From NCBI GenBank assembly GCA_965153455.1, contig OZ234493.1:18714213-18778212 (forward strand): a stretch of DNA of 64,000 nucleotides. Reading direction: 5' to 3'. How positions within the stretch are numbered: position 1 is the stretch's first letter; each line of letters starts with the position of its first letter. The DNA is from Sphagnum compactum (Eukaryota). Positions 19,201 to 53,489 of this stretch are shown one piece after another. The translations under genes were made by a program, and so were the position numbers. The notes beneath the pieces were generated by a model. That model saw only the letters and a list, made by a program, of their open reading frames with translations. It had not been told where the DNA came from and made no database searches.

Positions 19201-19899
19201 GTACATCAAGCTCTTGTAATGGTTGAACATATATTGAGTTTTTTTGCCATTGCAATGTGCTCATTCATTGATTCTCTAATGCTAAATTTTTTTATGTGGA
19301 CAATAATTTTGAAACCTTATAGGATTTTGAAAGCAAATGGATGCAATTTGCACGTGCATGTTTTCATTAGATCAAAATATTGCATAGTATTGTAGTCAAT
19401 GTTTCATGATATCTTGTAACTCAATTTGTGAAACATAATTGTTTATAAAAGTTCATAACACATTGGAAATTAATATCTTGTTTTCTAATTCACCTCATTT
19501 GTAGGAGTTGTTTTACATTCAAAGTTGTGTTCTTCATATTACCCATTCCTATACAATCTGAAGATTTGCATGATGTTTTAATGAGTTGAATTGTGGAGAT
19601 AGTTGGCAGAAAAAAATGCAAATTACATTCACATAGTCTTCACAAACCAAGTTGAATTGTGTAGACAAATTTGGTAAATGATGAAAACATCATACGTGTT
19701 TATTGAACTCAAGGCAAACTTTATTTCTTTTCTTCAAACAACAATTTCATTCAAACTTTTCAAAATGTTCTACAAAAAAAAATTATGTCATATATTATAT
19801 AGGTTCTACAAATGGCAAATTGTTTTAGTATGTATTTGCCTATGAGCCCAATGTGGCCCAAGGCACACCAATGGCATAACTGTTTATAACTACTTTGAC

Positions 19900-22170
19900 A
19901 TACTCTAATGGAATGGTTGCCATTTAAAGAAGTCTATATGCGAATATACTTTGTTGATTATCTTTCAGCTAGTTGTTTTTTAGAGCATTGGATTCAAGCA
20001 ATCCTTTGTGTCTTTTCAAATTATTATCATTAGGCACAATTAAGAACAATGGTTTTTGCATCAAAGTTCTCCAAACCTGCAATGCTTTATGCTAGCATAT
20101 CTTGTTGTTTTCTTCTCAAAACTTTCAATCCAAATAGTAAATGTTTTTGTAACGATGGAAAATCACATGCAATAGTTTTGAGTTCCCTCAAAACCTGGTC
20201 AATTAACTCACCTAGGTTTAAAGTTGTGTAGGCTTCATCTTGCTCTATTGTTTCCAAGGCATCAACATCGTCAGGCTTCTCATTCACATCAAATTCTTGA
20301 TCAGGCATGTCAATAGAATTAATGTGGACATCCAATGCCGGACCCTTATGAACCCCATGGAGTGTATTTGTCTTTGTACAATTGCCCCATCTAGAACATG
20401 AGGATGGAGCATTTTGAAACTTTTCATAACATACAAATTATTCCTCGCACTGCAAAAAGGCAATTACATTGTGGCCATTCAAAAGTTAAAGCATGTATAA
20501 TCCACACTTTCGATGGGTGGTTGGTGGATGCCACTAATGCAATATCCTCCCCATCTGGGCGTAACATCACATTGTGTTTGGAATATCACGGGCTCTAAGT
20601 ACAATGCTCGCAACAATGCCTTCCTATTTTTTGTTTCATACATAACCAAAGATTTTCAGCTACACACCATACTAGTAGTGTGTTAGAACATCACCAACTA
20701 GATGGTAAATCAACCAATCCATTCTGCACCCAATGAACCTTTCTCTTGAAGAGTACAATATTCTTTTCATGTTTTGTGGAATGATTCCACATAGGAGTTT
20801 CTGTCCTACCTTGCATGTTTCGATTCCCAACACACCACATCCCTACCTTCAACAACTAATGATCTTTGAGGTATTGAATGAATTGAATTGCATTTGGGAA
20901 ACTTATTTCCAACGACTGAATTTGTTGTTTTTCCCACAAGATAAGGTCAAAATTGGTGGGACATCCTTGCAAATGCATTATCCTCCCAAGGGCACATAAG
21001 ACTTTAGCTCATTCCTCTACAAATGCAATCTTCTTTACGACATTCCCAACCCATGTTTTCCACACATGCCACAAACACAAAAGCATGCTAGCTTTTGGTC
21101 AAACATTGCTTCATGGAAAAACAATTTCAATAAGGCAATGTGTGCCCCAACAACAATGGCAAAAACAAATCAAATTCACATTAAGGATATGCTTGTTCTA
21201 TTGGGGATAATGTACCTAGGAGCAATGACACAAAATACGACAATGACTATGTTTTACATGGGAACATTTGCTACAAATGTAGACTGTAGATTGTAATGGT
21301 TTTTTGCATTTGTACATGAAATTGCAATGGGCACTTAAGCTTGTACCAGACTATTGAGTTGACACATTGTTAATTTTCAATGCCCATTAACATACACCTA
21401 GGATATTGTTTTGTAATAAAAAAAACCTATAAACCCAAATTGAACAGAAAGCAAAAACTTATACCTAAACCAAAACTTGTGAACCCAAGTTGACAAATTG
21501 TAGTATATTTTGGTTCTGTTCATATGAAGGTAGATATGACCTTTGAAGGCAGAATTGAAAACACGACAAGTGCAAACAAATCCCAAATGGAGACAAATAA
21601 CCTTTGGGACTTATTTTGGAAAAGAATAATCTTACTTCGAGATGTTGATTTCTACTTGAGCATTATCAACAATGATAGCATACAACATCCAATCATTTGG
21701 CATTCTTTGAGATAGTGATTGGCAGACTAGATGGAGGTCATTTTTTCGGCATTTTCTAATTACAATGAATGCAATGGGTATTTCATTTTGCCATTCGTCA
21801 AACACCATCATTGTGTATGGAGAGTACTACAAAAAAACATAGTGCAAGGTTAATAGGTTGAATGTTATAAAACATAAAAGTAGACAATACGAATAAACAT
21901 ACAACATCCGTGTTTAAACAATACAAACAAGCATATGACATGTTTAAATAATGCACATGACATCCATGTTCGAACAATACAAGTATATGAATGACATTTG
22001 TGTCTTCCATTTGAACCTATGAAAAGCAAATTTCACACAACTATTATTGCCAATCGTGACCCATGAAGTTTGTGATGAAGGTAAATCTCATTTTTCATAC
22101 CTAGATTTTGTGAGGAATTTTTCCGTTGCTTTTTCCACAATGACTATTGATGAAAGATTCTAATTCAATT
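19900..22170 (-). mobile_element. Mutator-like (SWIM-domain) transposase remnant
   Basis: Minus-strand fragments EWQNEIPIAFIV (~21760-21796), LCLWHVWKTW (CxxH motif, ~21050-21080), and SWIM-like WPQCNCLFAVRGIIC (~20430-20477), followed by an acidic/coiled tail (ORF 20087-20335). Confidence 0.6.
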
Positions 22171-22179
22171 GTACTCGTG

Positions 22180-25100
22180 CACTAGAAGAAAAAGGCCAAT
22201 ATGTGACCAATGCATTTACAACTATTTGCAACTATTTGGTTTTGTAACTAAATTTTTGCTTTCTATGATTAATGTGACATCATGCTAACATCAACCGAGT
22301 CACTTATGATTAACTTGCAACTAATTTGCAACTAAATTGGTTTACATCTATATATGAGTTGGATTTATAATCCAAGAATAACCATTTAAAGTCACATTAA
22401 TCGCAAGCGGATTAATGTTTAGTCGAAATCAACATATATTTACATAGATTAATTAGAGTAATTATTTGATTTATGATTCAACTTAATATTCAAAGTATTT
22501 TCATTGTAATTAATATATAGTTATTACAAAATCATAATATTTTATTTATTTAAACATTAATTATAATATACACATAATTTATAATTAAACTTAATTATTC
22601 ATCATTTTAATTTTTATTATTTTAAAATTTAAAACATTGTAACTACATTTAATTGAATTAATTTAATTTTATACTTGTAAAAATTACATTCAAGTATACA
22701 AGAATATTTAATTATATACTTACAACATATAATTTTTATTACATCATAAAGAATTTGGAATAATTTTATTGAAAATTTAATATAATAATAATTATTTATT
22801 TTACTTATATTTATTAATATTTCTATAAAAATTAATAAATAATATTATAACATAAAATTTCACATTAATTAAAATGATAGTCCCCAATCATAAAAAATAA
22901 CTATCACATTTAAAACACTTATTTTTTACTATTAATAATAAAATAATTCTATATTAAATGAGAAGTTATGTTTTATAGTTAAGGTTTTTATTTCGAAATT
23001 TTATAATAATATTAAAATAATGAGCAAAGTTGTTGTAATTATTGTATTTAAAAACAGAAATACACTAATATAATAGTATGTATTATTCACTACTTACTCA
23101 TTAACAGTAAATTGTTAATATAAAAACATAAAATATAATAATAATAATTATTCTATAGTGGCATAAAACTATTAAAATTTACTTAATCTATTTGTAAGTT
23201 AGAATTAGAATACTTGAATAATTAATTTATAATTACGTTTTACTATTATGATTCATAAATTATAAATTATAATTTTAGTTCTTATTTCAGTTTCCAGAAT
23301 AATCATAATTTAATTAAAATAATTCATGTTATGACCATAACTACATGGATTTAAAAATAATAAACTAAAATATTTATTTCATGTAACTATTTGTTCATAA
23401 TATATCACTATTATAAATAATTATAAATGATTATATTTACTAATTATAAGTTACAGTAAATAGTTATTGTACAACATAAGTTTTTATATTATATAATTTA
23501 TATTCTTATAGTGAAATAAATCAATTACTGTAATTAATGTTACACTACTTTAAAATCATTACAATTATTTCAGATAAATGTTAATTATAGTAATTTCATA
23601 ATTTATTTTTTCTAATTGAACATAATTATTCACAATCTGTAATCTATAACTTTAAATCTGAATTAAGTTTGTGGAATTTTTTTTAATGTAGTTAAAATAA
23701 TTATTGTAATGATAATAATTGCAGGAATTACTATCCAGTAGTTTTTTAATAAAAGAATTCTGTAATTACTTATCTAGGATAAATATTTTATAGTAATATT
23801 ACAGTAATAAAAAAATATATATGTTCAACAAATTCTTATATTCATATTTATTAATCAAAAATGGAAAAAAACACATTTTGACCAATAAATAGTTTTACAA
23901 TAATAAGTTTAATTATATAATAATTACAATAATTCATTTAATGTCACTTTTGAAATAAATAATTTGTGTAGGAATTTATTTTCTGAAAGAAATTATTATT
24001 TCATTAATTTTAATTTGAAAATAAATATTTATAATATTTATTTTAAAGTATAATAATTAAATTATTCTTAAATTAATTATATCATCTATAATTTGACCAG
24101 ATTTTAAAAATTAAGAAAATATTTTAAATTATTTAAATCATTTATTTATCCATGAGTTATGTATTAACAAGTTGTGAGTAACTAAATAGGTAGTTAGTTA
24201 AATATTTAAAAACTATTAGTTACTTAGATAGTGGATAATGAATACTTAATATTTGTAGCGTATAGTTTATATTTTAAATAAATTTTTAATTTAGTCATTA
24301 TTAATTAAATGATTATTTAATTATCTAGTGAGCCATGTGATTGAATTGTTTAAAAATCTAAAAACCAAGAAAAAAGGCATGAAGAAAGTTTTGAAATTGC
24401 AACTTAGTTTGTGAGGAAGTTACAACTTCAAAATTTATCCCATAGTGTTTATTCTCCATTTTTAGTTTGAGCATTATATAAATAAAAAGTGTGGTCATCC
24501 AATTTCACATTAAAAAATGTGTGCACATGGGATGAACCATTTAAAAGGTTTAACTCAAAACAAAAACAAAATTTATGCATAATTTTAGATTGCCTACTTC
24601 CCCAACCTACTTGTCTGCGTAGCTAAATAGGTGCCTAGTTTGACTTACCCACCTAAGTTGACCTATGTACTTACCTACTTAAGTACTTACATATATGAGT
24701 AGCTATTTAACCTAAAAAAATAGGACCTACCTACTTATCTTTTTACCTAAGTAAATAGGTAATTATTTCACTTAAATTTTTAGCCATCTACTTATGTACC
24801 TACCTAAGTACCTACCAACCTAATATTAATATTTTGTGTTTTTTTTAAATGCCACGTGGCATCTTTAATTTAGGCCACGTGTCATAATCAAATTCATCCA
24901 AACATGTGAATTGAACGTTTTAAATTATTTCAAAATAATAATATTATCTATTTTAAATAATTAAATATTGGCACATGCGGCAACATTTCATTTGCCTTCA
25001 ATAATGACCAAAATGGTCACATCTTAGTTGCATGTGACAATACTTATATAATGGAGTCAAAGGATGAACTTGTATTTCTTGATTTTTTCGTTCATCCAAT

Positions 25101-25232
25101 ACCCTTGTCGTTTGCGACTAATATCACATGCGATTTGTCGAAGGTGACTAAGGGGATTTTAGTTGCAAATGTTGTTTACAACTAAAATTTAGTTGTAGGG
25201 ACCAATCGAAAATAAGTGTTTTTCTTTTAGTG
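22180..25232 (+). mobile_element. Non-autonomous CACTA element, copy 2 (same family as copy 1)
   Basis: Termini CACTAGAAGAAAAAGGCC...TTTTCTTTTAGTG; 3-bp TSD GTG (22177-22179 / 25233-25235); the right ~800 bp is collinear with copy 1; AT-rich core ~22450-24350. Confidence 0.9.
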
Positions 25233-27039
25233 GTGTAACCTATGTCATTGGCCTGAATGTGAATTGGTTATCCATTTCTTCTTTCCAAAGCCATCTTTTT
25301 TGTAATTTATTTGAATTTCAAACCAAGAAAACTATTCCAAATCCAATATTTTTTGGAAATGTTATTGGATTTCTACAAATCCAAACATCTTCATTAAATC
25401 CTATGCATCAAAAGTTTTCTAACAATACCAATAGTGTGACCAAATTCCATTAATATTTTTTTATATAAATGAATTTTCAATGAAAAAATTGTTGTCAATA
25501 ACTTCTTCACTATAAGTTGAAACATTATGAAACCAACTTGATACGGCATTCATTGAAAACTTTCCAACAACGTCAAGAGCATGATAAGACGCACCATCAT
25601 TTGGGAGATTTCAATGCAACAAACAAATCAAATAAACTACCTTGTTTCATAGATAAATATTGGAGGTTTTCAAAGACCATAAGTGAAGAAATAACTTAAT
25701 AAAAATCACCATTCTAATAGTTGATTTTTAGTTTTTAGTTTACATAATAATAAATGACTAAAGATTTGTACTTCATATTTGGTTTCTAGCCAAATTTGGC
25801 TAAATTTTCTTAGGGATGATAAATTGTTTTATTACAAATAGAAATTCCTAAAAACGAACAATGACCATCACCTACATAATATATATTGGCACCTTCACTT
25901 TTTAGGGTGAAACCTTTTATTAAAAAGTCCACATACGCATCATACACCAAATTTTAGATGAAATATAGCCAATATATGCATTGTTCGGGCACTTGGGCCA
26001 ATAAACTAGGTTTGACTTGGTAAATGATCACATGGTTCGATAGTTGAAATGGGTGTGTTCATTGCTCCATGTGCAAGTGTTCAAGAATTATCGCTAATTT
26101 GTTGAAGCATACTTGCATGCGACATTGGAAAGCTTGGTCACGATTTCTTGTGTTTATGCCAATTGGATTGAATGTTTCACCTATTGATGAATGTGGTAAG
26201 AGTTCTTGAAACATTACCCTACCATTTTCTTTTTTGCCATGGATTGTTGTGCTTTGTTTTGGCAAGATGTTGGTCAAGTCTTGTAGAACCTTGGGGACAA
26301 ATGGTGAGACATCTTTAATGACAAAACTTTCTATTGTATTTCCAATGATGTTTCTTACTTTCCTTACCGATACAATGATAAAAAATGGAATGGATTTTCC
26401 TCAATATAGGACATAATATTGTTAGTCTAGGATCCACACTCTTAATGTAAGATTGACAATGAAATATAAGACTTGATTAGTTCCATATGCAAAATTGGGT
26501 TTCATAAAACAAAAGTGGAATTGGAACCCAAGAATCCAATTCGTAAAACAAAATTGCATGTCTTAATAAAAAATTGAGGATCCTAAATCATGGATCCAAT
26601 TTTATAAAAACTAATAGGTAGTAAATGTTCTTGCAAAATCAAGGACTCATATTCCCAATTCAAAAGGATTTAATTCATTTCCTTCCAAAGTTCCTTATAT
26701 TTTGGAAAATGATAAGGTCTTGTACTAAGACTTATTAAGGATTCTAAATTCTTGAAACCACACCTTGGTTCCTAAAAACGTTAGTGGTTTGACACCTCTT
26801 GTGAAAAAAATTAGGAAGGTGCATGAATTGATCTTGACCATGTGTATGTAAGAAATTCATTAAGGATGATATTGAAAGGAAAACTAAGACTCTATGAACT
26901 ATAGTTATTCATGATTAAGGACTAAAAGAAAACAATGGAAACTTGATTCTTGAAGACCATAGATCTTGAAACAAAACACACAAATGGATGGAAATAAATA
27001 ACATAAACATGTAGACAACAAAATGTACTCAAAAGATGT

Positions 27040-27325
27040 TTCACATGTTTGAAAATGAAATGTTGGGTGTTTCCATTGGGAGGGATTGTACCATACTGGC
27101 TTGTATTTTCATGCCCACCCTTCCTTGAACATCCTTGGAATCTAGTTTTAAACCCCAAGTTGCACACCAATTTGTAGTAAAGATGGTGTCACAAAAAGGA
27201 ACAACACAACGAGACAAAGTTGTGTGTATTCTCCTATACATCAAGGGTGATAGGTATGCTGGAAAGAGGTTGGCAATAAATTATTACAACTAAATCACAA
27301 TCCACAAAGATGACATGTGGGGTAG
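27040..27325 (-). pseudogene. Degenerate RING-finger-like coding remnant, probably TE-borne
   Basis: Minus-strand translation PTCHLCGL*FSCNNLLPTSFQHTYHP*CIGEY/TLSRCVVPFCDTIFTTNWCATWG has RING-H2-like spacing, with two stops, one frameshift and one Cys lost. Confidence 0.45.
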
Positions 27326-27699
27326 TTGCAAAATAGGGTGGTTCATTTTTTCATCACATTTGACTTTCTACATATTGTATTCTATTCAAATGTCATAAAC
27401 ATGTGGTGAAATCATCAATGTGCCAAAAATGATTACAAATTAAAATTGCCAATTTGAATAAGAATATGCACATAATGATGAAATTCACAAAATATACAAA
27501 AGGAAGAAACTTACAACATCGTAGCTGCTCATCGTTACTTTGGTAGATTGATCTTCCAATATGCTAGCCTCAACAATTTTCGTTCTCTAAACTTCTTTTT
27601 GGTTCCTTGGCCTGTAGTAGGTATTTGGTTCATTACTTTAGGTATCAGCACAATGGCTTTCAACCTAAATGCAAACATATAGTCATGAACTTTCATCAA

Positions 27700-29060
27700 A
27701 TTATTATAATTGCAATAATTACTTTTGATTACTGTAAAAATATAAATAAATAATGTGAATATTTTGTATTTCTAATAATTGTTAAGTGTAAATAAGTGGT
27801 TTTAAGTTATAAATACAACAATTTACAATAATTACATTCATTACTTCAATTATAGTATAATTATCGCAAAATTATATACCAATTTAATTATAATTTATAA
27901 CATATAAATAGCTGAAATATTATATAATTATTATGATAATAATATTAAATATATATATATAATTACTGTAAATAAATAATTTATAATAAAATTTGATTAA
28001 AATAAATTTTCTATAAATTTTATAAATTTTTATTAATCTATAAAAATACTATAAATAATGTTGTAGTAGTAATTATGCATTTTCAATAAAATATTATAGG
28101 TTTTACATATAATACTCTATTATAATTGAATTATTTTAATTATAAGTAGTACATTACTTATTCAAATTATAGTAAAATTACCATAAGAATTGTAAATGTT
28201 AATTTAAATTATAAATTATAAATATTATTATTAAGTGCAATTACATATTACATAAAATTTTAATGAATTTTTAGCATTGTAAACAATTTAATAATTAGGA
28301 TATATTTTTATGTTGGAAATTTTATTATTTATTGTAAATAAGTAATTATAAATTATATATATATATATTTGAGAATAATGATGATAATTACATTAAATAT
28401 TGGAATTACACTATGGTTAGTGTAAAAAGATTAAATATGGATTTTAATTATAAAATTCAAGTTGTAAAAAATTTGATTATTTATAGTTATTTATAACTAA
28501 TTTGGTAATTAATTTAATTACAATAATTCTATGATAATTATTGTACTTGTTTTTTATACACCTATGGATGTTTGATGTATTGTCACCTTTACATATACCC
28601 TAATATGAAGCTAATATACAATAATATGTTTTTCAAACCATACCTAACTAATCCACGAGAATAATACATATATATACCATTATGAATGTGGAATGCATAA
28701 TGTATACATAAGGCTTACTATACATAATTGTTAGTCACCAAAACATAAAACACATGATTGATCCTATACAAAATTAGTAATATACATAACTTAATGTATA
28801 AATAAATATTAGTTACCATTTTTTGGTCACTGTTGCAACTAATGGGCCATACAAAGGCCTTCTAAGATGAAAATAATGTGAGAAATCATCCCATTGGAAG
28901 AATGAAAAACCTATAAATAATTGCAACATAGTCATAAATGTGACCAAAAAATGTGTGATGTGATTTCAGTCACAAATGTAACCAATGTTAGTTGTCAACA
29001 ACGATTAGTCGCATGTAGTCACAAATCATTTGATTACATTTTAGCCTTTTTCTACTAGTG
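27700..29060 (-). mobile_element. CACTA element copy 3, reverse orientation, only one terminus found
   Basis: Ends in TTTTAGCCTTTTTCTACTAGTG at 29060, the reverse complement of the left terminus of copies 1 and 2, with subterminal repeats and an AT-rich core ~27700-28560. No partner terminus was seen. Confidence 0.75.
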
Positions 29061-29989
29061 ACGGTGCTTTTATTGACGAAAAGGTCCTTTCTTTTCTTGG
29101 GCATCAAGTTATCCTTGTCCTTATATATTTTCTCATGATTGAAGTATAAAGAAAAGTAGTTTTATTATATTTGTTCTTAACGCCAAATTTCTTATAATAC
29201 GGAATTGGGTGAAAGATCACATCCTAATGGGAATAATGCTTTCTTGGAAGTTGAATCATTTTTGCCCACCATCTATCATGGAACCTAGGATTTCAATGTT
29301 TTTAACAAATCATCAATTAACTTGATAGTTTTCAAAATCTAACTATCGGGGTCTTTCAAAGAGCAAGAACATATTTTCATCGTTGTGGCTTTGGTGGCTT
29401 TGACAACCTCAATAAATATGTTTTTCTTAAAACGAAAACCATGCATACCACTGTTTGTAGAGCACGACACAATGGTTGTTGTCATGTTTACTAAGTAGCA
29501 GTTGCAATTGAGGTGTTGACATAGTACATAAGAGTGCCCGACATTCGTTTTTTGCCTTTCAACTTGTAGTTGTAGTTGAAAAACAATGATGCCGCGCACT
29601 TGCAACAAAGACAGTAATCTCAATCCCAATGTCATCCATGTGTGATTTATCATTCATCACTATGTTTGTAATTGACCAAAATAGTTGAACATGGGACCTT
29701 CTCGGTTGGCACACCACCCTAGGAGGCTTGATTATAGAGTGTGTAATTTTCCAAGTCGGCTTTTCAACTAGAATTCAATTTTAGACCATGTGGGTGTTAA
29801 GAGCATTCCATGGAGTCCAAAATAGTTGGGATTTGCCTTGATTTGTCCACCAAGAGAGTAGGCAACTCAATTCATTTGGCAATTGTGAATAATGTTTTTA
29901 AATATTCAAAAAATTACAATTGAAACGTAGTTGAAGATGACATCAAGTCAAAGGTTGGTTGGTTGAAAAAGAGGGGTTTTGTAGTAGTG

Positions 29990-32700
29990 ATTTAATTGGC
30001 AATAGATGAAGGTAATTCTTTCAAATTGAAACACCTTAACAAATTAAATTCCTTGAATGCATCAAATTGGCCAACAAACGTAAGTAATTTTTGCAAGTTC
30101 GTACATTCTCACAACAAATTTTTTTGGAGTGCATTTAATTGGCAAATGTACATGTAAGTAATTCTTGCAAGTTGAAGCATTCACACAAGTCAAGATTGTC
30201 AAGTGCATTCAATGACCAATAAATGAAAGTAGTTTTTTCAAATTGGAACAACTTCACAAATGAAGCTTTTGGATTGTATTGAATTGGCCAATAGAGGAAA
30301 ATAGTTATCTCAAGTTGGAACACTTTGATAAATGAAACAGTTTGAATGCATTCAATTAGCCAATAGATGAATGGGCTTCTTTCATGATGTTTTCAAGTTA
30401 GAGAAGTTTTATCAATAAAGATTTGGAATGCATTCAATTGGCCAATAGATGAAGGTAATTTTTTCAACTCGGAACACCCATTCAAATCAAGCTTTTGAAG
30501 TGCATTCAATTGACCAATAGATGAAGGTAAATTTTTTAACTCGGAACACCCATTCAAATCAAGCTTTTGAAGTGCATTCAATTGACCAATAGATGAAGGT
30601 AATTTTTTTCAACTCGGAACACCCATTCAAATCAAAAAATTTAAGTGCATTCAATTGACCAATAGATGAAGGTAGTTCTTTCAACTGGAAACAACATGAC
30701 AAATAGAGCAGTTGGAGTGCATTCAATTGGCCAATAGATGAAGGTAGTTCATTCAACTCAGAACACCCATTCAAATCAAGCTTTTGAAGTGCATTCAATT
30801 GGTCAATAGATGAAGGTACTTCTTTCAACTCGGAACACCCATTCAAATCAAACACTTGGAGTGCACTCAATTGGCGAATAAATGACGATAGTTCTTTCAA
30901 CTCGTAACAACCTTTCAAATCAAGCTTTTGGAGTGCATTGAATTGCCCAATATATGAAGGTAGTTATTTCAAGTTGCGACACCTTTTCAAATCCAAGTCT
31001 TGGAGTCCATTCAATTGGCCAATAGATGAAGATAGTTATTCCAAGTTGCCACACTTTTTCAAATCCAGGTTTTGGAGTGCATTCAATTGGCCAATAGATG
31101 AAGGTAGCTCTTTCAACTCGGAACACCCATTCAAATCAAGCACTTGGAGTGCATTCAATTGCCCAATAGATGAAGGTAATTCTTTCAAGTTGCGACACCT
31201 TTTCAAATCCAGGTTTTGGAGTGCATTCAATTAGCCAATAGATGAAGGTAGTTCTTTCAACTCGAAACACCCATTCAAATCAAGTATTTGGAGTGCATTC
31301 AATTGCCTAATAGATGAAGGCAATTTTTTTAAGTTGCGACAATCGTACAAATAAAACTCTTGTAATGCATTCAGTTTGCCAATAGATGAAGGTAGTTCTT
31401 TCAATTCGAAACAACATGACAAATGGAACACTTGGAGTGTATTCAATTGGCCAATAGATGAAGGTAGTTCTTTCAACTCAAAACACCATGACAAATCAAG
31501 CTTTTGAAGTGCATTCAATTGGCCAATAGATGAAGGTAGTTTTTTCAACTCGAAACACCATGACAAATCAAGCTTTTGGAGTGCATTCAATTGGCCAATA
31601 TATGAAGGTAGTTCTTTCAACTTGGAACACCCATTCAAATCAAGCACTTGGAGTGCATTCAATTGCCCAATAGATGAAGGTAGATCTTTCAAGTTGCGAC
31701 ACTTATATAAATAAAGTTCTTGTAGTGCATTTAGTTCGCCAATAGATGAAGGTAGTTCTTTTAACTCAGAACACCCGTTCAAATCAAACCTTTGGAGGAC
31801 ATTCAATTGGCCAATAGATGAAGGTAGTTCTTTCAAGTTGCGACATTTATATAAATAAAATTCTTGTAGTGCATTCAATTGGCCAATAAATGAAGGTAAT
31901 TCTTTCAACTCGAAACACCCATTCAAATCAAACACTCTGAGTGCATTCAATTGGCCAATAGATGAAGGTAGTTCTTTCAAGTTACGACAGTCATATAAAT
32001 AAAGTTCTTGTAGTGCATTTAGTTCGCCAATAGATGAAGGTAGTTCTTTCAACTCAAAAGAACATGACAAGTGGAACACTTGGAGTGTATTCAATTGACC
32101 AATAAATGAAGGTAGTTCTTTCAACTCGAAACAACATGACATATCAAACTTTTGGAGTGCATTCAATTGGCCAATAGATGAAGGTAATTCTTTCAACTCG
32201 AAACGCCATGACAAATCAAGCTTTTGGAGTGCATTCAATTGGCCAATAGATGAAGGTAGTTCTTTCAACTTGAAACACCCATTCAAATCAAGCACTTGGA
32301 ATGCATTCAATTGGCCAATAGATGAAGGTAGTTCTTTTAACTCGGAACACCCGTTTAAATCAAGCACTTGGAGTGCATTTAATTGGCCCATAGATGAAGG
32401 TAGTTCCTTCAACTCGGAACACCCGTTCAAATCAAGCACTTGGAGTGCATTCAATTGGCCAATAGATGAAGGTAATTCTTTCAACTCGGAACACCCCTTC
32501 AAATTAAGCACTTGGAGTGCATTCAATTGGTCAATAGATGAAGGTAGTTCTTTCAAGTTGCAACACTTTGACAAATCAAATTCTTGGAGTGCATTCAATT
32601 GCCCAATAGATGAAGGTAGTTCTTTCAAGTTAAAACAATCCGACAAATCCAATTCTTGGAGTGCATTCAATTGCCCAATAGATGAAGGTATGTTTTCCAA
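29990..32700 (-). repeat. Coding tandem array of 72-bp (24-aa) LRR units, about 38 copies
   Basis: Consensus LKELPSSIGQLNALQxLxLxxCxx. On the plus strand the block GAGTGCATTCAATTGGCCAATAGATGAAGGTAGTTCTTTCAA recurs every 72 nt. Twenty full units were counted in ORF 31231-32964; the total is estimated from length. Confidence 0.95.
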
Positions 32701-35700
32701 ACTTTGGCATTGTGCCAAATCAAGTACTTGTAATTGTAAACAATTAAACAAATTACTTGGCAACTTTTGAATCGTGCATTTTTTGAGGCACAACCACTTA
32801 ACGTTATTCAAATTTCGCCCTTGGATGAAAATTTTCACTATAATTGATGAAACTTCTGTTAGGTCAACCAACCTAAGGTTGCAAAATCTCGTTGAGCCGA
32901 TTTGGGACAATATAGGCAAATTGTCACATCTTTTCAATGAGATGCCTTCCAAATTTTCCACCACCTATGACATGAAATGAAAACAAAAGGATTATCAATA
33001 TAAAAGAACATTTCATCCTAATACCAATTTTTACTAAAAAAACATATATTTATAAAATCAAGATTCAAAGTTAAAACATTTGGTTCTTGACATCAAAATA
33101 AATTCATAGGAAATCAAAATAAAATTATAGGATTCAAATAGTATGGTGACAACCTCATCCTTTAGTAAATAAAAGTTGACTCATTTGATTTCCATATAAA
33201 TCGATTCATAATTGGAAGTTCCATTGCAATATTTTGACCCATGTCTCGTAATTGTTCATGTATGTACAAGATTCCACCTTCTATCTGTTGGATTAAAGAT
33301 CTATCTTGTAAATTTTGTAATTCAAACTTTGGGTGTAAATAATCTCCACTCCACGCTCGACAAATTGTACTTATTTTCAAACCACCCAAAAAACAAGCAA
33401 TATCCAAAAACATGTTTTGATGTTGTTTATCCAAGTGCTCATAAGAAATCTTCAAATTCCTCCAAAGCTCTTCATTATCATTACCCCCGGTGAAACTTTG
33501 CCCACTTTTCAATTTGTTCAATGCACCTTCCCAAATTTCCAATTCTTTAATATTGGAGAGAAAAGAACCCAATATTTTAAGACTTAAAGGGAGCACCCCA
33601 CAAGCTTTTACAATCTTCATACATATATCTTGGAAATCCTTTGTTGGAACATGATTTGCATTACCGAATGCATGGAACATAAATAGTTCCTTTGCTTGCT
33701 CTTCTTCCAAAGATTTCAAGACCACTTTTCCATCCTCACTTACATGAGATTCCAAAATTTGCCAATTTTGACAATTCACAAGTAGTTTGCTTTTAGAAGT
33801 TGCATTGTTGGTAACATTATCAATGAGAAGTTGCAAGGATGTAAGGTTCCTTGCATCACCAACATCATCCACCACCACTAACACTTTTTTCGATATCATA
33901 CATTGCCTAATTTGGTCAAGGTCTTTTTGATTCACATTTTCATCCTCGCATAACGTTTTGCCACACAAATCATGTAGGAGTTGTTTTATGACATCATTGA
34001 TATTGTCCTTTGATTTCACATCCTCCAAAAAACTAGATTTGTCATATTGGTTGTGGTACAAATGATAGAATTTTTTGCACAAAGTGGTCTTCCCAATCCC
34101 ACCCATTCCAACCAAACCAACAATAGATTCCTTTTGTAACAAGATGTTTATGTCTTTTGCTTTGTTAATCAATGCCGCCTCATAACATGGCAAAGGTGGA
34201 AGCAATATATTTTTCTGTCAAAATTCACAAAATATAAGTCATTTATATGTTATCTTTCTTATTTGATAACCAATATATATGACATTGCATATGCAATACA
34301 CATCAAGCGTGCTATGACCTAATGTGTATCAAATTACATGAACATATACGAAATCAAAAGACTTAGATTTCATGTTTTTACCTCCATACATATTTTCAAA
34401 CATTTTAACAATAAAAAATAACTTGGATGATCTTTGTTTGGCGGCTTGCAAATTGTCAAGTGATTAACATCTTCAATTTCGTAATGATTGTTGTTTGATA
34501 ATTGAATAGTGGAGGCAAATGGCACTAAAATTCCCTGCATGTGCAAAAGATTAAATTAATGGAGCTCATTGACTTGTTTGTTCACTTATGCTTTAACTTA
34601 TAAGTAACATAGTAATTTCAAATGGTGGTGGAAACTATAGCTTAATAACTATTGATGTTTGAATCATAATCAAATTTTGTGTAAATTAATTTCCTTCAAC
34701 CCTTTTGCAAGCAAATTATAAATACATCACAAAGTTATTGATTTTTAATCTCATTAATCTTACATGTTTTAATGATGTTAACGATTTTCCTTACAATGAT
34801 TTATATGGAATTGATTTGATGAAAAGAACATTTAAAATCTATTTCTTGATGTTTGAAATCAATCAAAATTTCCTTTCCATCAATAATAATTCATGAAACA
34901 AAGTTCATAAAACACATGACCCATTCACCACATTAATATATTTAGAAGTATGGAGTCCTTGATCGCAGACAAGTTTTGACAATACAAAAAATGTTCAACT
35001 AATGAACCAAGTTGGATAACTTTCAATATGGTGAAATGAAAATCTTACCCAATTTTCATCGAGTGGTAATCCTTCACCAAATGCATAAATGTTGACGTCT
35101 TCATGAATGACATTTATAAAATCCTCTGAAAGGTATTCCATTTGTGGGTTGAAAGGTTCTAAATTTTTTGAAAAACCAAGTTGGGTGGCATACTTGTACA
35201 ACAAGTTGATTTGTTGATATTGCCAAGTGAAATATTTTGATAACTATTGGGTACCACCAGAATGTGGCACACCATAAAATATTACACTTTTGACATTATT
35301 CAAAAATGTCTTACAACATTTTTGTACTTCATCATCCAAATCATTTCTTAGGCTTTGATGTACATGTTTGTGAGCTTCAACCACCAAGCTTTTGAGTACA
35401 AGACCTCCAAAACTATAAGCAATTAATGCCACTGGTCCATCCCAAAGGGATTGATAACTACAAAATATTCAACAGTGCACCAAAATTTTGTTATCAACAT
35501 TGTATTAGCATGTACAAATTTATCTTATTATACTTGGGGAAATTTTCCAATTCACACATGACCTAAGCCATAAGTTCATAATTGATTTGCGCACCATTTG
35601 TCATTTTTCATTTATTGATTCCATTAATCTACCTAAAAAATATGACAACCATGTTTTGGTAAAATTATTATTATGTACAAGTATGTAGGTGTTTACATTC

Positions 35701-36555
35701 TTGTGTTAATGTACAACTCATCTTCTATGTGTTCCTTTGGAAATATCATGGAAATAAAATTTAAAAAATTTGTTAAAAAAAAAAAACCCTTGTTTGGAAA
35801 TAATTTTTTTGCAATGAAATGGATGCAATTTTTCTACGCATGTATTAATTTAATTTAATTCAATTTAATTGCATTACCAAAGATAAAACTTCAAAAAATG
35901 CGAATTAAAAATTGTCATCAAAAACCAAACTCGTTGTACCGTGAACTTATAATATGAACATACGCTTTGCTATTATCTTCAAACATAAACATTTTCATTT
36001 TAGCCCCATTTTATGTTCTCCTATAGGAATTTAACAATTCAAATAAATTGAAACTTGTTGGTGTGTATCACAATACTAGCACACATGAATAATTAACTTG
36101 TGCAAAACATTTAAGAAATTCTAAAGTTGCAAACAATTATCTTTAATGTATAAAAGGAGTAGTGACTAATGTGTCCATAAATAGAGGAGATTGTCACACC
36201 TTGAATTTGTAACCAATCTTTGAATGAGATTTTTGCCAATTTCAATCACATCATTGTGAACACTTGGCACAATGTTAGAATCATAGGACAATGATAAAAT
36301 TCGAACATTGTTGTTCAAGTCTTCGGGTAGCCACTTTTCTGGCCAACATATGCACTCTTCTTTATTGTTGGTGGGGCGTGTCGTCCATGTTTCCTTCCAT
36401 TCATCATTTGTGCCAAAAACAATTCCATGAAAAAAAACGATGGTCAAGTTTGGTTTATTGGAATTGCAAGTGGGATTTAAATCATGCACTTGATATTTTT
36501 GCAAAGAAAATGAAATTGAGTGAACACAATTCTTCAAACATCTCTTGAAATTCAT
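29990..36555 (-). pseudogene. Alpha/beta-hydrolase-NB-ARC-LRR (HNL-type) immune receptor, disrupted
   Basis: Exons 36555-36200, 35457-35049, 34534-34382, 34214-33154 and 32964-~29990, with GT-AG junctions. Hydrolase: IVFFHG...CWPEKWLPEDL..VRILSLSYD, IAYSFGGLVLK, VIFYGVPHSG, DVNHLTICKP. NB-ARC: GMGGIGKTT, VLVVVDDV, GVLPLSL, FLDIACF, IHEQLRDMG. Lesions: TAG at 35244-35246, a 1-nt frameshift near 33170, TAA at 31231-31233, and more in the distal LRRs. Confidence 0.9.
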
Positions 36556-38625
36556 TTGACTATACATGAAATAAAAGAACCGTAATATACAAATTATAGT
36601 AGTTAGATAAAGGTAATAAATAATTGAAAAGATTAAGTTTAACAAGAAGACAATAATAGATGAATTGGAGAATACCAAATTTATCTTGCATGACTAACAA
36701 ATGAAGATCATTCGCATGTGTCATAGACCTCAAAGTTTCAAAAAATAGTTCAATTAAGTAAATATTGTTACATAGTAGGTGGAACGTATGCCAACCAATA
36801 AAGGTCAATGCTAAGAATTGGATTCTTTCAAGTTTGGGTCGATTAGCTTAGCCATCTAGTTTGGTTCATTTGTATTTCATGACATTTTCCTCAACATTTG
36901 GGCCACTTAGGCCTCCAACTCCTAAGGAATTGGGACACGAACCCAATAAGAATGTCCAAGACCATTGTAATAATTTGCTTTAGGTTACACATTGAACTTA
37001 ATTGCACATTAAAACTACACATTGAACTTAACTCATAATCTATAATGACAATTCCAATCCTTACAAGTTCAATATATTCATAGTCAATACCAATTGACAA
37101 ATTTCCCTTTCACCAATTCTACTTGTTATAGCAACTGAGTCGCTGGCCTAATGTAAGAGGCTATAATGAGGACTCCATTTCCTATTGTTTTTACATCATT
37201 TCATATTGTTTTTATCTAAACAAACAAACTGGAAAGTAAGGCAAAGTGAAAATGTATGACAAGGAAGCTTGTAAATGATTGAGGACATTCAGGTACCCTA
37301 GTGGCTAAAGGGTATGGTTGTGAAGCTGCTGGTTGGGCGTTCAAATCTGAACTAGACCTCCTTCTCCTGATGCTTTGTGAGGACAACAAGCTATCATGGT
37401 TGTAAGGGTCAAGGAAAATTGTCCACACCCAAACAAAATAAAAAAAAGTAAAGAAAAAATCAAACTTCAACATGTAACTTGGAAAGCCTAAGAAAAAACT
37501 GTCTGAAGAAAGCTCATGATAAGGTCAAGAAGAAGCACCACATTGCTGTGCCATCCAGAGCTTGAAGGAGCATTTTCAGTGGGGACCAAAGGTGTCTCAA
37601 TCCAGCAGGGACACGTGCAACATCTCTCTTTCTTTTTGGTGGCCCTTGTGAAAGACCAACTCCTTTCCCCTTGAGACAATATGAATTTCCCATATTTTGC
37701 ACTACTGAAATTCCTTTTGCTCACTGCTCTCATAGATATTTTTCTCTTAACCTTTTGGTCTCATAAAACCTGCTACAAATCCTTTGCCGTCCCGATAGCA
37801 TACACAGGGTATGATGGGTGTCCCTCACATCACAGATTCCCGCAAGCTAAGCTGATCTTTCCACTAGATCTCCCCAGAAAACATCAACCCCTTTCCTCTT
37901 CACGATCTCCCTGGAATTCTCACACTTCTTCTCTCACTCCTTTTCGACCTTTCTTGCAGATGTTTCTTCTTCTTCATTGTCTCCTCGCCCAGAAACTTCT
38001 AGAAGGGTTTTGCCGTGACTCTTCAGACTCTAGCATACGCGCTTTACCGATTTCTTCTTGGCCACTGAACAATTCATTACTTTCTTTTCTGGAACACATG
38101 TCTCTATTTTCTACTCATAATTGAGGATAGAACATGCAATGTCAGCTTTAGAGTTGTCAAACGCGCTTTACTTTTTCCCTCCGGCCTCCTCCATTATTAT
38201 CATCATGACTTTTGTTCACATCCACACACTGACCTTTCTTTTACCAAAAAACTAAAGCGGAAAAAAAGCTAAGTCATAAATCTAAAAAGTGCTAAAATCA
38301 AATGCTTTTTGAGATTCTGAATAGCCAAAATTCATCCAAATTGAAAGAAAAATCGTCAGATTTCCTTACATGGTTTTCAAGTAGGTAGCCAAAAGTAAGA
38401 GAAACATGTTTCAAATTTTCTAATGCCATATTTAGCTCATAGCTCAATCCGACTAATCTTCCTACCGATGATAGGCACTTGGGCTATATTTCAAAACTGA
38501 CCCAAAAAGTTATGCATCCACACGTTTCCTGCTGTTGGCTGATTTCACCCAGTGCATTATTGAGGCGCTCTGTCAGAGCTCATGTTGCAGGCAATGCATG
38601 ATTAATTGGGGCCTTGGGCGGACCG

Positions 38626-43481: not shown

Positions 43482-46400
43482 ATTGGTATTAAAGCAAGTT
43501 TTTTGAGTCTTTGGAAAAACCTCTAAAACATTTTAAGGTAGTTTTCTACAGGCAAATGACCTTAGAACAACCAGCATTAAACATAGTACCGATGGTGGAG
43601 CCTAAAGCAAAGAGGAAGTACAAGATTAAAAATAAAAAAGAAAAAGATGTAGCCTTTGAGGAATTGGCCACCATAAGCAAAGTCATGGTGGAGGGAGATT
43701 TGCTTGAAGATGAAGCTTAGAGTTTAAAAGAGTTGGAGAAGGAAGTCGCAATGAATCCTTCCCACAAGAATAAGAAAAAGAAGGGGAAGGATGGGGCTAG
43801 GCCAAGCAAAGCTTTGGCCTAAGAGAAGACTTCTTCCCCTATTGCCTAAAGGAAGGGAGGAATTGAAGTAAGCAAGGGTTCACTAACAAAGAAACCTCCC
43901 ACGACTCCCAAGAAAAACAAGGGAATGGAAAAAATTCCTAACCCAAGCAAGGAGCCACTAGTGATGTGGACTTGCACTCTTTTGAAGAGTCCAATAATGA
44001 GAGCGACTCTTTGTTGAATCTACTTAATGAACCCATAAAGGAAAAAAGGAGCAAATAAGCCCTAAAATGCTCAGAAATGGACAAGTTTTTTGAAGCACAA
44101 GAATAGGAAGTAAACCAAAATGGGATGAAGAAGCCATCCAAGGAATTTTTAGCCTTCCTTGACACCTTCTGAACCTTCATGGTCCAACATAACAAAGCCA
44201 TGTTGCAACACAATGAAGCTGCAAAAATTATGGGCCAATATGCATAAGGTTTGGGCGTTATAGGCATTGTTCCAAGTGGGGGTTTTGCCAAGGTTTCCAT
44301 GAAAGCAAAGCTGCCTAATTCCTTTGCAAGGAAGGAGATGAAGATGAAAAGAGTGCAACCATGGTTGCACCAAATGGAAGTATCTCGAAATTCAACACCT
44401 CAAATTAGACAAGGAGAGAATTCAATTCGTTCAAACATTCTTTAAGGAACATGCATGGGACTATTGGATGTGTCAACAATAGGAGACACCCAACCTACTT
44501 CAAGTCTTCATGACATGGGAAGAATTCAAGTTGTAGTTAAACAAAAGGTTTCTGTTGCACCATGTGGTGTTCAAGGATGGGATGGAGTTCTTGGAGCTCA
44601 CCCAAGGACATGGAGTGGGCTTTTTGGCCCATTATGTGTAAGACTTTAGCTAAATGTTGACTATGGTTGAAAAAATAGATCATCAAAAAGTTGATATTTT
44701 TACATGGGTTAAAGCCTTGGGTTTGAAAATTTGTCTATCAAAGGATGGACATTATAGACGCTTGTCGGGGTTTGATAAAGATGGTGGAGTGCACGGGAGA
44801 CAAAGGCCCTTTGTGTTCCAAGGGTGAAATAGGAAATGAAGTCACCTAAAATTAACATGCCGGCCCAAGGAGTGGGAGCAAAGGCTAATATAAATGCAAG
44901 TGGGGCCATGGCAAGCCAAGGCCTCACAACAACATGGAAAAGTCATGGGGCAAGGAATTGGTTACAAAAAAGGCCAAATGGCACTTAACTAAAGTCAAGT
45001 GTTTCAACTATGATAATCATGGGCACTTGGCAAAGGACTATCCCAAGCCACTTCAAGTATGTGATTGCATTACCAAGGTAAAATGATTCTCCTAGGGGTT
45101 TCATGGCCAAAATAGGGGCCCACAAAATTGAAGCCTCTAATTTGTTAAAATTGAAATGTAAGATAAATAACAAGTTGATGTTTTGTCTTTTGGATTTAGG
45201 AGTGACCAATTCAATCATGACTTCACAAGTAACGAAACGATTGGGACTCAAGACCAAATTAGTGGCAAATACCATAATAATGCATTTGGCACAAGGCATA
45301 GTTAAACCTTCCTTTAATGTAACAATAGGTGTCAAGCTATTTTGTGAGGGATTTCAATTTTTGGAAAACTTCACCTTGTGTGATTGGATAATTTTCATGT
45401 AATTGTACTAAACACATTTTTGGATTCTTACAAAGTAGACATCTTAATGAGTTGAGTTGCTTAGTTTTTTAATTTTGATATTTTTGAGAGTTTCCCAAGA
45501 GGAATTTAAGCCACAAGGGGTAAGGAAACCTCCTACTTATATTTTGGATTCACTCAATAAATTTTGGAAGGTTTTAACAAATGAACTTTCCAATGCCCTT
45601 CCACCTTGTAAAAATATTGACCACAAGATAAAAGTGGTGCATGGTCAGCCCTACCATCTAAGGCACCCTATAAGTTAAACCAAAAAGAGTTGGAAGAACT
45701 TTTAAAATAATTGAATGACCTTTTTAGTCAAACATATATTCGGCAAAATAAGTTGCCTTATGGGGCCCTAATTTTATTTGTTGATAAAAAGGATGGCAAG
45801 TTGAAGATGTGCATTAATTATTGTGTCTTGAACAAAATAACCATAAAGAAAAATATCCTTTACTTCACATTGATGATCTATTGGATCAACTCAATGGGGC
45901 CACGTACTTTAATCGAATTGATATCAAATCAAGGTATTATCAAATTGACATTGCAAACAAGGACGTTGAAAAGACAACTATGAAAACCAAGTATGGTTCA
46001 TATGAGTTCCTAATAATCAATTTGGGTTATGTAATGCCTTGTCAATGTTCATAACCTTGATAAACTCATCTCCTATGAAAAGTTGGACGTGTTCGTGATC
46101 ATTTATATTGATGACATCTTGGTGTATTCCAAGATTGTACAAGAGCACGTGGAACATTTGGAATGTGTTCTAAGTAAATTTCGACAAAATGAACTTTTTG
46201 CCAATAGGGCGAAATGTGAGTTTGCCCAAGAAGAAATGGATTTCCTAAGGCATATTTTATTAAAGGAAGGGGTGACGCCCAACCTTAAAAAGTTACAAGC
46301 CATAAGAGATTGGAAAAGGCTAGTCATGATCAAAGGAATTAAATCCTTTTAAAGTTTAGCCAACTTCTATTGGAAGTTTATAAAAGGATTTTTGTAGGTG

Positions 46401-48073: not shown

Positions 48074-48691
48074 CACAAGAACTTTCGATTAAGCAAAAAT
48101 GTTCTTTGACATGTGGGTTAAGCACCATGAAATGCATCAATTCATTGTAAGTGATAGAAATGCCAATTTTATGACAAGTTTTAAAAAACATTTGTTTTGA
48201 AAGGTGGGGATGAAATTGTTCCACATTATTTCTTTATGATGGCAACTATGAGGAATTATTGCACACCTTCACCACTAAGATATGCACTCACAATAAAAAC
48301 CCGGTTGGAAGTGGAACTACTATGTAGTGTAGTCTAACAAGTAAGGTGGTTCGAGGTAAGTAATGAAATTCACCAAAAATCTAATGCATTGTGTCCAAAT
48401 TGAAGCTACAAAACATCGTGAGGGAATTGTAACTCACCATGATGGAATATTGAGGAGCCGTATGTTGATGTTCCTTCGATGTCATGTTCGATGGTTTGAA
48501 ACCTTCCATTCCGTTTGTCATAACAACTACATACAACATCCTAATCTAACATGCATTGGAGTTGGAAGCTAATATAAAAGGAGCCATGTTTAAACAAATC
48601 TCATAATTTTTTATTTTATGTTTTTGATCAAGAGTTAAGCCTCGGAGCTAGGAGCCACTTGCCTAGTTTGAGGAAAATAAACATACAACTC

Positions 48692-49056
48692 AACCTCCTC
48701 TACTTCCAACAAGTGTAACTCCCTTATAGCAAGCCCGATGAGGCTGAAATTTTGGGAGAGCCTTCTACACCTTCTAAGCTAAAACTAATTCAAATTTGAC
48801 ACAAATCCAATGGTGGATTTGAGAGAAACAACTAATTGAACAAAAAGTCCAGAGGCTTCACCATGGAAATCATTCCATGAAACCCACTTCAACCCCCTCT
48901 ACTTCCAACCCTTGTAGCTTCCTTACAAAAAGCCCGATCAAGCCGAATTTTTGGGAGGGCCTTCTACACCTTCTAAGCTAAAACTGATTTAAATTTGACA
49001 CAAATCCAACGGTGGATTTGAGAGAAACAACTAATTGAACCAAAGTCCAGAGGCTT
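48692..49056 (+). repeat. Tandem duplication (~165 bp unit, ~200 bp period) inside a nested insertion
   Basis: ctctacttccaac...gccttctacaccttctaagctaaaact...aaatttgacacaaatccaa...agtccagaggctt occurs at 48692-48857 and 48891-49056. Confidence 0.9.
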
Positions 49057-52974: not shown

Positions 52975-53489
52975 TGACATGCCCTTCTAGGCAGACCTTC
53001 AAGTGGGAATATTTGCTTAGTCGGGGCCTAAGTCTAAACCATTGTGGGCCAACCCCTATGGTGGATTGGGTTGCATGTTTAAGTGTTGGATTGGGTTTGA
53101 CTCCCGGTTTAGTAGCACTCATGAGCCACGTAGGTGCTAACGAGTGAAGGTTTAAAGAAGGGGACTTGAAGAGATGTTGGTGCTAATGAGTGAGGGTTTG
53201 AAGAAGGGGACTTGAAGAGATGTCCTCAATGCGTTAAGTCTTTCACACAAGTATAAGAAAGAGACGGAAGATAATAATCCTAGGTGACAAGGCTTTGTAC
53301 CATTTCTATCCGCAATGGGTTGACTCCCACCTGTTTAGAGGTTGAGGTTAATCCTAGGTTACGAGACAAGTTTAAATGTTGAAACTCATTTAGTGCGTGT
53401 CTTGCCATGTGAAGGTAGTTTAGGTGTTTATCAAGGAGTGAGATTGGACACGAAGGCGCAAGGGCACCAAGGCAAATCTGGGTGTGAGA
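52975..53489 (+). repeat. 3' LTR, with an internal ~45 bp tandem duplication
   Basis: Follows the PPT, ends GGGTGTGAGA; ggtgctaa..gagtga.ggttt.aagaaggggacttgaagagatg occurs twice at ~53132-53222. Confidence 0.85.

Follow-up and report, generated by a model that had tools for sequence, protein, structure and literature searches.

Why does a peat moss carry, at the end of one gene, more than thirty tandem copies of a 72-bp unit that keep their length to the base and yet differ from one another? The array lies on the minus strand of a 64,000-nucleotide stretch of Sphagnum compactum contig OZ234493.1 (assembly GCA_965153455.1, positions 18,714,213 to 18,778,212), which we call the window and to which all coordinates refer. 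A sequence-only reading had described it as a cassette-like array in the gene of a bryophyte nucleotide-binding leucine-rich repeat receptor (NLR), diversified by recombination, with paralogues and pseudogenes as cassette donors. In our judgement the array probably forms the leucine-rich repeat (LRR) domain of a pseudogene from a Sphagnum family of hydrolase-type NLRs (Hyd-NLRs; hydrolase–NB-ARC–LRR), a family both large and young.

The array, its gene and its family

Units were located by sliding a 72-bp consensus over the minus strand of the window, and the array was confirmed with 37 consensus peaks. Tandem Repeats Finder (TRF) places it at 30423-32690 with period 72, 31.5 copies, 82% matches, 0% indels and a score of 2614, followed by a short continuation at 30202-30371 (2.4 copies). 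Thirty-two in-register units run from 32727 down to 30423. The first 29 (U1-U29, counted from 32727) keep a perfect 72-bp register, U30-U32 come after a 1-bp slip, and about five degenerate units beyond U32 reach 29980. The array is contiguous and complete in the genome. No second array was found in the 64-kb window, where the sole other match resembling the 14-nt unit anchor (codons 14-18) lies at 54917.

Each unit translates on the minus strand as xLxLxxCxxLKELPSSIGQLNALQ. The sequence-only reading had counted roughly 38 exact units, a number that the scan bears out. The period is indeed exact, but the units themselves are not: no pair is identical, pairwise identity ranges from 45 to 70 of 72 nt, and the means are 0.80 for nucleotides and 0.70 for amino acids, with 0.80 amino-acid identity to the consensus. 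All the recurring types named for the variable segment are present (VLDLNGCSE, KLDLSWCFE, VFHLSCCFE, ELYLY[DK]CRN and NLDLKRCRN). The array was rightly placed in one exon in that no intron interrupts it, yet its reading frame is not open throughout.

What gene does the array belong to? It forms the last exon of a minus-strand gene whose upstream exons can be traced by alignment to the Sphagnum protein P0003. The features of the gene and the array, in the order of transcription, are as follows.

37607..37693, minus strand: probable first coding exon (MGNSYCLKGKG...), from the alignment to P0003
36200..36498, minus strand: first hydrolase-like exon (KYQVHDLNP...TIVFFHGI...), 3' end approximate, 79% identical to P0003 residues 53-150
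35049..35459, minus strand: hydrolase-like exon with the YSFGG motif, from the alignment to P0003
34382..34534, minus strand: last exon of the hydrolase-like N-terminal domain, 94% identical to P0003 residues 289-339
33154..34214, minus strand: NB-ARC and winged-helix exon with the P-loop GMGGIGKTT, from Pfam
32728..32964, minus strand: start of the LRR exon ahead of the regular units (VVENLEGISLKRC...), with an AG acceptor directly upstream
29980..32727, minus strand: whole LRR array, 32 units and about five decayed ones, from TRF and the consensus scan
31288..32727, minus strand: U1-U20, where the reading frame is uninterrupted; read from 32964, it closes at the TAA of U21
31936..32295, minus strand: U7-U11, first copy of a duplicated five-unit block, identical to U16-U20 at 327 of 360 nt
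31288..31647, minus strand: U16-U20, second copy of that block, from the block comparison
29980..30412, minus strand: old decayed tail of repeat-derived units (IKLL*LENIM ... EFNLLRCFNLKELPSSIAN*), common to the metagenome loci L050, L026 and L077

The NB-ARC exon matches PF00931 at E 7.6e-30 (104.4 bits, cut-off 23.5) and also the Roq1-like winged helix WHD_ROQ1 (E 7.8e-11), and the open part of the array matches the Pfam LRR families PF23598 LRR_14 (E 2.8e-82) and PF23286 (E 9.2e-49). With the nearest relatives in Sphagnum, the assignment to a bryophyte NLR holds. P0003 is 72-94% identical to the N-terminal exons of the window, and over its residues 53-339 the identity is 79-94%. The separate hydrolase exon pieces of the window gave no Pfam match. 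Because the N-terminus of P0003 matches PF05057 DUF676, a putative serine esterase (22.4 bits, cut-off 20.3), and the window exons align to P0003, the gene is classed, by homology, as a Hyd-NLR. The sequence that follows the exon at 37607..37693 matches the paralogue in a different frame, where a frameshift or an alternative exon is possible.

A contig from an RNA library (run X16) joins 35459 to 36203 and skips 743 bases, the intron between the first two hydrolase exons. This contig, like the others from RNA runs, is 95-99% like the window; such contigs report members of the family in RNA libraries, and the splicing of some family member, not transcription or splicing of the window locus.

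How large is the family? A search with the NB-ARC exon returned 2,746 proteins at E<=0.001. Among the 120 of these that were listed, the best 82 are Sphagnum proteins or unnamed contig proteins, the named species are S. compactum, jensenii, fallax, tenellum, balticum, troendelagicum and magellanicum, and the best NB-ARC identity is 86%. All 12 proteins examined over their whole length share the architecture and the scaffold NLKELPSSIGQLNALQ, with 6-25 units. Several annotated C-termini (P0009, P0014, P0001) read into frame-shifted repeats, and database protein ends are therefore unreliable in this family. P0001 (Sphagnum jensenii, 1364 aa) also holds two partial hydrolase/NB-ARC stretches in series, apparently from a fusion of two adjacent members of the family or a mis-annotation. 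Very regular arrays are found in distant moss Hyd-NLRs as well, both in Ceratodon (P0087, P0103) and in Sphagnum (P0074, P0086); P0103 and P0086, the latter from Sphagnum magellanicum, carry a 48-residue super-repeat of two units with very high internal identity.

The family was sampled at the DNA level from metagenome contigs found by an exact search for the 42-nt scaffold, which occurs in at least 120 contig stretches and many times per gene. In 120 loci (664,627 bp), units were located with the 14-nt anchor at up to two mismatches. This gave 2,688 units, with successive spacing of exactly 72 bp in 2,310. Arrays reach 10-71 units in at least 99 loci. Among the 99 arrays with at least 10 units, 90 have an in-unit stop, 71 a frame-breaking spacing and 6 neither. 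Where both ends lie inside the locus (42 arrays), translation from the first unit stays open for a median of 11.7 of 25.9 units; no more than 3 arrays are open over at least 90% of their span, and 39 end in a dead tail. The window array, open for 20.8 of its 38.2 units, is typical of the family, whose median identity to the consensus is 0.79 and whose best array reaches 0.885. The window copy is an ordinary, decayed representative of a moss NLR family that is large and unusually regular.

The state of the window copy

Could this copy still encode a receptor? Its full-length reading frame is not intact, and the following lesions were located.

35244..35246, minus strand: in-frame TAG in a hydrolase exon, where P0003 has Tyr, from the alignment to P0003
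31231..31233, minus strand: TAA replacing the scaffold Gln (codon 19) of U21, the first stop in the array, from translation
31036..31038, minus strand: TAA replacing Glu (codon 12) of U24, from translation
30964..30966, minus strand: TAA replacing Glu (codon 12) of U25; the unit, 'NLK*LPSYIGQFNALQ', is also found in L050
30603..30609, minus strand: run of seven A where sister units have six, shifting the frame in U30, from unit comparison

Furthermore, the NB-ARC exon carries a 1-bp deletion near 33175-33177 relative to seven of seven paralogue loci, which leads to a premature TAA at 33164-33162, nine codons ahead of the splice donor. The tail units of the array carry many stops. Because of the TAG, the NB-ARC deletion, and the stops and extra A of the array, the window copy looks like a pseudogene that is now decaying.

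How far can these lesions be trusted? Independent data came from four public runs in the form of short contigs, of about 80-230 bp among those listed, the best run holding 0.32 of the sampled words. Every contig over 35244, in all four runs, reads the Tyr codon and never the TAG of the window. Short runs of A hold two of the frame changes, and the extra A of U30 sits in such a homopolymer, so a sequencing error is possible there. Given the unseen TAG and the A runs, a part of the lesions may be private alleles or errors of assembly, and this copy may be less dead than it appears. The stop of U25 is covered by zero-difference contigs from X1 (30910-31005) and X8 (30916-31029); for the stop of U21, no zero-difference contig over the site was found among the contigs listed.

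The same doubts bear on the view that the locus is still a working gene, its lesions outside the array being assembly errors or private alleles and its protein ending at the U21 stop. With 39 of the 42 complete arrays open over less than 90% of their span, an end inside the array is normal for the family, and this favours a working gene as do the unseen TAG and the A runs. Against it stand three independent lesions upstream of or at the start of the array (the TAG, the 1-bp deletion absent from all seven paralogues and the possible frame change in exon 1), and the lack of any identical protein among the annotated Sphagnum proteins listed, where NB-ARC identity peaks at the 86% given above. We regard a working gene as quite unlikely.

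An array of this kind may also raise the suspicion that the assembly has expanded a shorter repeat. None of the four runs has contigs that bridge the array. However, all units differ, which makes each junction unique, and zero-difference contigs lie across unit junctions: X2 at 30159-30331, 30822-30935 and 31235-31406, and X1 at 30910-31005 and 32323-32419. With X8, these contigs span the junctions in 30822-30935, 30910-31005, 31235-31406 and 32323-32419, so that the array is unlikely to be an invention of the assembly. The arrays of 10-71 units in at least 99 independent metagenome loci, and those in annotated proteins of several Sphagnum species, argue in the same direction, and we give an assembly expansion hardly any credence. 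The many apparent joints of contigs within the array have short sides (20-28 nt); these were taken as repeat cross-matches and left unused.

How units vary and arrays change

Which parts of a unit are free to change? Eighteen codons form a held frame, consisting of L2, L4, C7 and the LKELPSSIGQLNALQ scaffold, and six (1, 3, 5, 6, 8 and 9) are hypervariable. Between loci, the proportion of non-synonymous differences (pN) at the hypervariable codons is 0.415, against a proportion of synonymous differences (pS), taken as neutral, of 0.17-0.18. Among the 27 stop-free units of the window, the ratio of pN at hypervariable codons to pS at the other 18 is 1.81 (bootstrap 95% interval 1.46-2.33). The selection that had been predicted for the x positions is borne out to this extent, namely that these six codons change amino acid faster than silent sites change, an excess compatible with diversifying selection in the past. 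As a neutral yardstick, the per-codon pS of the hypervariable codons themselves (0.41-0.55) was rejected, since multi-step codon paths inflate the values.

An AlphaFold2 model of 31234-32964, made from the single sequence, is a regular 24-residue solenoid (predicted local distance difference test score, pLDDT, 87.7), and one 72-bp unit encodes one turn of it. In the model, positions 1-3 of a unit form the beta-strand, which in some units begins at 23, and a short helix occupies 15-19. Given the position of this strand, the variable residues belong to the strand of LxxLxLxxCxxL or follow directly on it; this motif forms the concave face of LRR structures (PMC4030839). The model agrees with the sequence-only reading, which had assigned the x positions to the beta-sheet face.

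Why is the scaffold so uniform, even at silent sites? Between 25 gap-free loci (300 pairs), the NB-ARC exon has pS 0.169 and pN 0.082; for the scaffold codons outside the anchor (10-13 and 19-24) in 22 of the same loci, the values are 0.180 and 0.087. Since scaffold and NB-ARC agree in pS, no extra homogenisation is needed, and by this comparison the scaffold is no more conserved than would be expected of a young gene family. We infer that its sameness reflects a young family together with ordinary purifying selection or structural constraint. Within the window, the statement that the scaffold is nearly invariant at silent sites was too strong. Although the codons of S15, S16, I17 and N21 are fixed, third-position diversity is 0.23-0.46 at G18, L20, L23 and L10, and pS is 0.24 over codons 10-24 of the stop-free units and 0.233 over the 18 non-hypervariable codons. 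When all 2,688 units are taken together, low third-position diversity extends beyond the scaffold to the rest of the unit (P14 0.03, S15 0.04, A22 0.10, L2 0.11, C7 0.16), whereas codons 1, 3, 5, 6, 8 and 9 vary.

Might the nucleotide sequence of the scaffold be conserved in its own right, for instance because small RNAs that control the whole NLR family bind to it or arise from it? In seed plants, conserved NLR motifs are targets of small RNAs, and the exact recurrence of the 42-nt string in at least 120 stretches, many times in each gene, would suit such a role. However, the silent divergence of the scaffold equals that of the NB-ARC exon, which leaves no excess of conservation to account for, and we hold this explanation to be very improbable.

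By what route do arrays gain and lose units? Within the window, U7-U11 and U16-U20 match at 327 of 360 nt, a value reached by 23 of 2,000 shuffles of unit order, and locus L011 holds a six-unit block that is tandemly repeated. The order of types had been called shuffled; in part, it goes back to such block duplication, and it is shared with related arrays. Types ELYLYDCRN, KLDLSWCFE, VFHLSCC, NLDLKRC and VLDLNGCSE recur in other loci, some variable segments being identical, so that unit types are shared between loci as had been proposed. L050 and L026, the arrays most like that of the window, run colinear with it apart from block insertions and deletions, and L050 shares the stop-bearing U25; colinear descent with block indels accounts for the shared types. 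For 573 of 2,690 units the nearest neighbour lies in the unit's own array, where 30 would be expected by chance (347 ties). In-register duplication of repeats with hypervariable exposed residues is supported by these comparisons.

Do other loci also donate units? Ongoing recombination might copy the specificity segments of about 30 bp, or whole units, between loci, with paralogues, pseudogenes and dead tails as donors. The recurrence of the window types elsewhere would be expected of such copying, as would near-identical arrays that differ by one unit. L039 and L107 (units ~949-1165), from different metagenome assemblies, are such a case, with 41 identical units and exactly one 72-bp unit between them; a difference in unit number is clear in only this one of 10 same-locus pairs and may be real variation or assembly collapse. 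The stops in 90 of 99 arrays and the dead tails of 39 of 42 complete ones are a possible reservoir, and exchange of repeats between genes is described in fungal NLRs (PMC13449251).

The tracts that such copying should leave are scarce. Any exact 100-mer is shared by only 49 of 7,260 locus pairs, and in about 14 of these a single locus was sampled twice. Among 27 shared stretches examined in 19 of the other pairs, only four contain the repeat anchor, two of those four being overlaps of contig ends. Exact in-array tracts of at least 100 bp between different loci thus amount to two clear cases in 19 pairs, shorter tracts lying outside this search. Related arrays are colinear, scaffold and NB-ARC have the same pS between loci, and copies of one and the same locus have 255 aligned units that are identical, 25 that differ at 1-3 positions, and few unit indels. 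Donation of cassettes by other loci is not supported by these sequence comparisons, and we rate it unlikely. The proposal of recombination-driven diversification stands for the duplication of units and blocks in register, as seen in the window and in L011, but not for paralogue or pseudogene donors.

Several observations weigh against our account of the family. The nearest neighbour lies in another locus for 1,770 of 2,690 units, a figure inflated by about 13 locus pairs that are the same locus sampled in several metagenomes, and array similarity shows no correlation with NB-ARC distance (Mantel rho 0.05, p 0.35, 21 loci). Both are counted in favour of donors, since exchange between loci would give them as well; the missing correlation is also compatible with fast turnover and was set aside as uninformative. 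Silent diversity at L2, L4 and C7 (pS 0.33) exceeds that of the scaffold (0.18), although these are three codons and mainly one site. Selecting loci by an exact match to the scaffold, and finding units by an anchor over codons 14-18, biases scaffold diversity downward, and the distances are uncorrected and taken between non-orthologous units. Finally, recent differences between copies of the same locus fall in hypervariable codons in 9 of 27 cases against 25% expected (p 0.21), so that ongoing selection is unsupported by them; 19 of the 27 are non-synonymous.

Taking the evidence together, we favour a young Hyd-NLR family in which unequal crossing-over or replication slippage would duplicate or delete units in register, singly or in blocks of several, and so lengthen, shorten and reorder the arrays. 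The six exposed positions would have diversified because new binding surfaces were positively selected. The likeness of the scaffold, silent sites included, would follow from the youth of the family and structural constraint, with no dedicated homogenising or cassette mechanism. The window copy, disabled in a hydrolase exon, the NB-ARC exon and the array, would be decaying in the way of most tails of the family.

Neighbouring sequences and known receptor systems

Other features of the window lie on both sides of the gene. Directly downstream of the NLR tail, 13000-30000 is very AT-rich (GC 0.18-0.34 in 2-kb bins) with short AT-rich tandem repeats. On the plus strand, an open frame at 40375-40959 matches a protein kinase domain over its C-terminal half (Pkinase, E 9.1e-24, profile positions 121-219 of 263) and is probably one exon of a kinase gene. 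Three long open frames at 54791-59624 on the plus strand (393, 449 and 488 aa) seemingly belong to one large gene; the middle frame has weak Roc GTPase (E 7.2e-5) and COR-A (E 2.2e-4) matches, both below the Pfam cut-offs, and the first has LRR-like 'LKELTV' stretches. This gene may encode a ROCO-type protein, another candidate receptor like the STAND (signal transduction ATPases with numerous domains) proteins beside the NLR. Eight other open reading frames of the window, including five in 13000-30000 and the one at 43938-44399, gave no Pfam match. Two short tandem repeats were also recorded, a 199-bp repeat at 48690-49056 (1.8 copies, 88% matches) and a 46-bp repeat at 53133-53223 (2 copies, 93%).

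What, then, does the locus tell us? The window copy itself, as a decaying pseudogene, matters little. Its family matters more: peat mosses hold a very large set of hydrolase NLRs with unusually regular sensors, 18 of 24 codons being held and six hypervariable, in arrays of up to about 70 units, nearly every one of which ends in a dead tail of the same repeats. In an early-diverging land plant, the family offers a convenient natural system in which to measure how new specificities arise when repeats duplicate and their exposed residues come under selection.

Receptors built from repeated LRR units are familiar from elsewhere. In lampreys and hagfish, the germline carries incomplete variable lymphocyte receptor (VLR) genes, which are completed in somatic cells with cassettes that flank them. 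These genes resemble the moss family in that recognition is LRR-based and built from modular units, a likeness that lies behind the term cassette, but the window array is contiguous in the genome, with the match at 54917 as the one other anchor-like sequence in 64 kb, and no sign of somatic assembly was found within the window. Among plants, the tomato proteins Cf-2 and Cf-5 consist of 24-residue LRRs in conserved tandem units whose number varies (37 in Cf-2, 31 in Cf-5; Matsushima & Miyashita 2012, PMC4030839), and their specificity resides in the repeat block (PMC4030839). The length of the LRR and the tandem repetition of highly conserved units are the same as here. In contrast, the Cf proteins are extracellular receptor-like proteins without an NB-ARC domain, and their super-motif alternates two LRRs where the window has a period of one unit with occasional multi-unit blocks. 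The two-unit super-repeats of the moss proteins P0103 and P0086 recall the alternating repeats of Cf-2.

Bryophyte Hyd-NLRs, also called HNL, are known from a study of non-flowering plants, Sphagnum among them (Chia et al. 2024, PMC11218826). The window gene agrees with them in that its closest proteins come from Sphagnum and the N-terminus of its paralogue matches DUF676, and differs in that this copy is broken in several places. The part of that paper available to us classifies N-terminal domains and does not deal with highly regular LRR arrays. In the literature on moss Hyd-NLRs and on NLRs with conserved repeats, we found no description of the Sphagnum LRR arrays, which supplementary files may list.

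Another parallel is fungal. In the established model for HET-E and the NWD genes, near-identical repeats with few hypervariable sites change by unequal crossing-over and exchange between genes (Ament-Velasquez & Saupe 2026, PMC13449251; Dyrka et al. 2014, PMC4986451), and NLRs with repeats of high internal conservation (HIC) are stated to occur in plants too (PMC13449251). The moss arrays share with these fungal NLRs the near-identical tandem sensor repeats, the few diversifying hypervariable positions, and the probable gain and loss of repeats. They differ in that the repeats are LRRs and not WD40, ANK or TPR, and in that repeat-induced point mutation (RIP) is absent. The stated HIC range is 80-100% identity between repeats, or a T-REKS similarity of 0.85 over at least 100 aa (PMC13449251); the window units, with pairwise identities of 80% in nucleotides and 70% in amino acids and 0.80 to the consensus, lie at or below it. 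Exchange between genes, a part of the fungal model, is not supported for the moss loci by exact in-array tracts of at least 100 bp, of which the 19 pairs examined gave two clear cases. One might still picture moss Hyd-NLRs as the plant, LRR-based counterpart of the fungal HIC NLRs, in which hundreds of arrays of up to about 70 near-identical units make new binding surfaces by gain, loss and exchange of units, and dead tails and pseudogenes act as a reservoir recombined into live genes; we think this unlikely. The moss family is, for all that, directly comparable with the fungal NLRs that bear highly conserved repeats.

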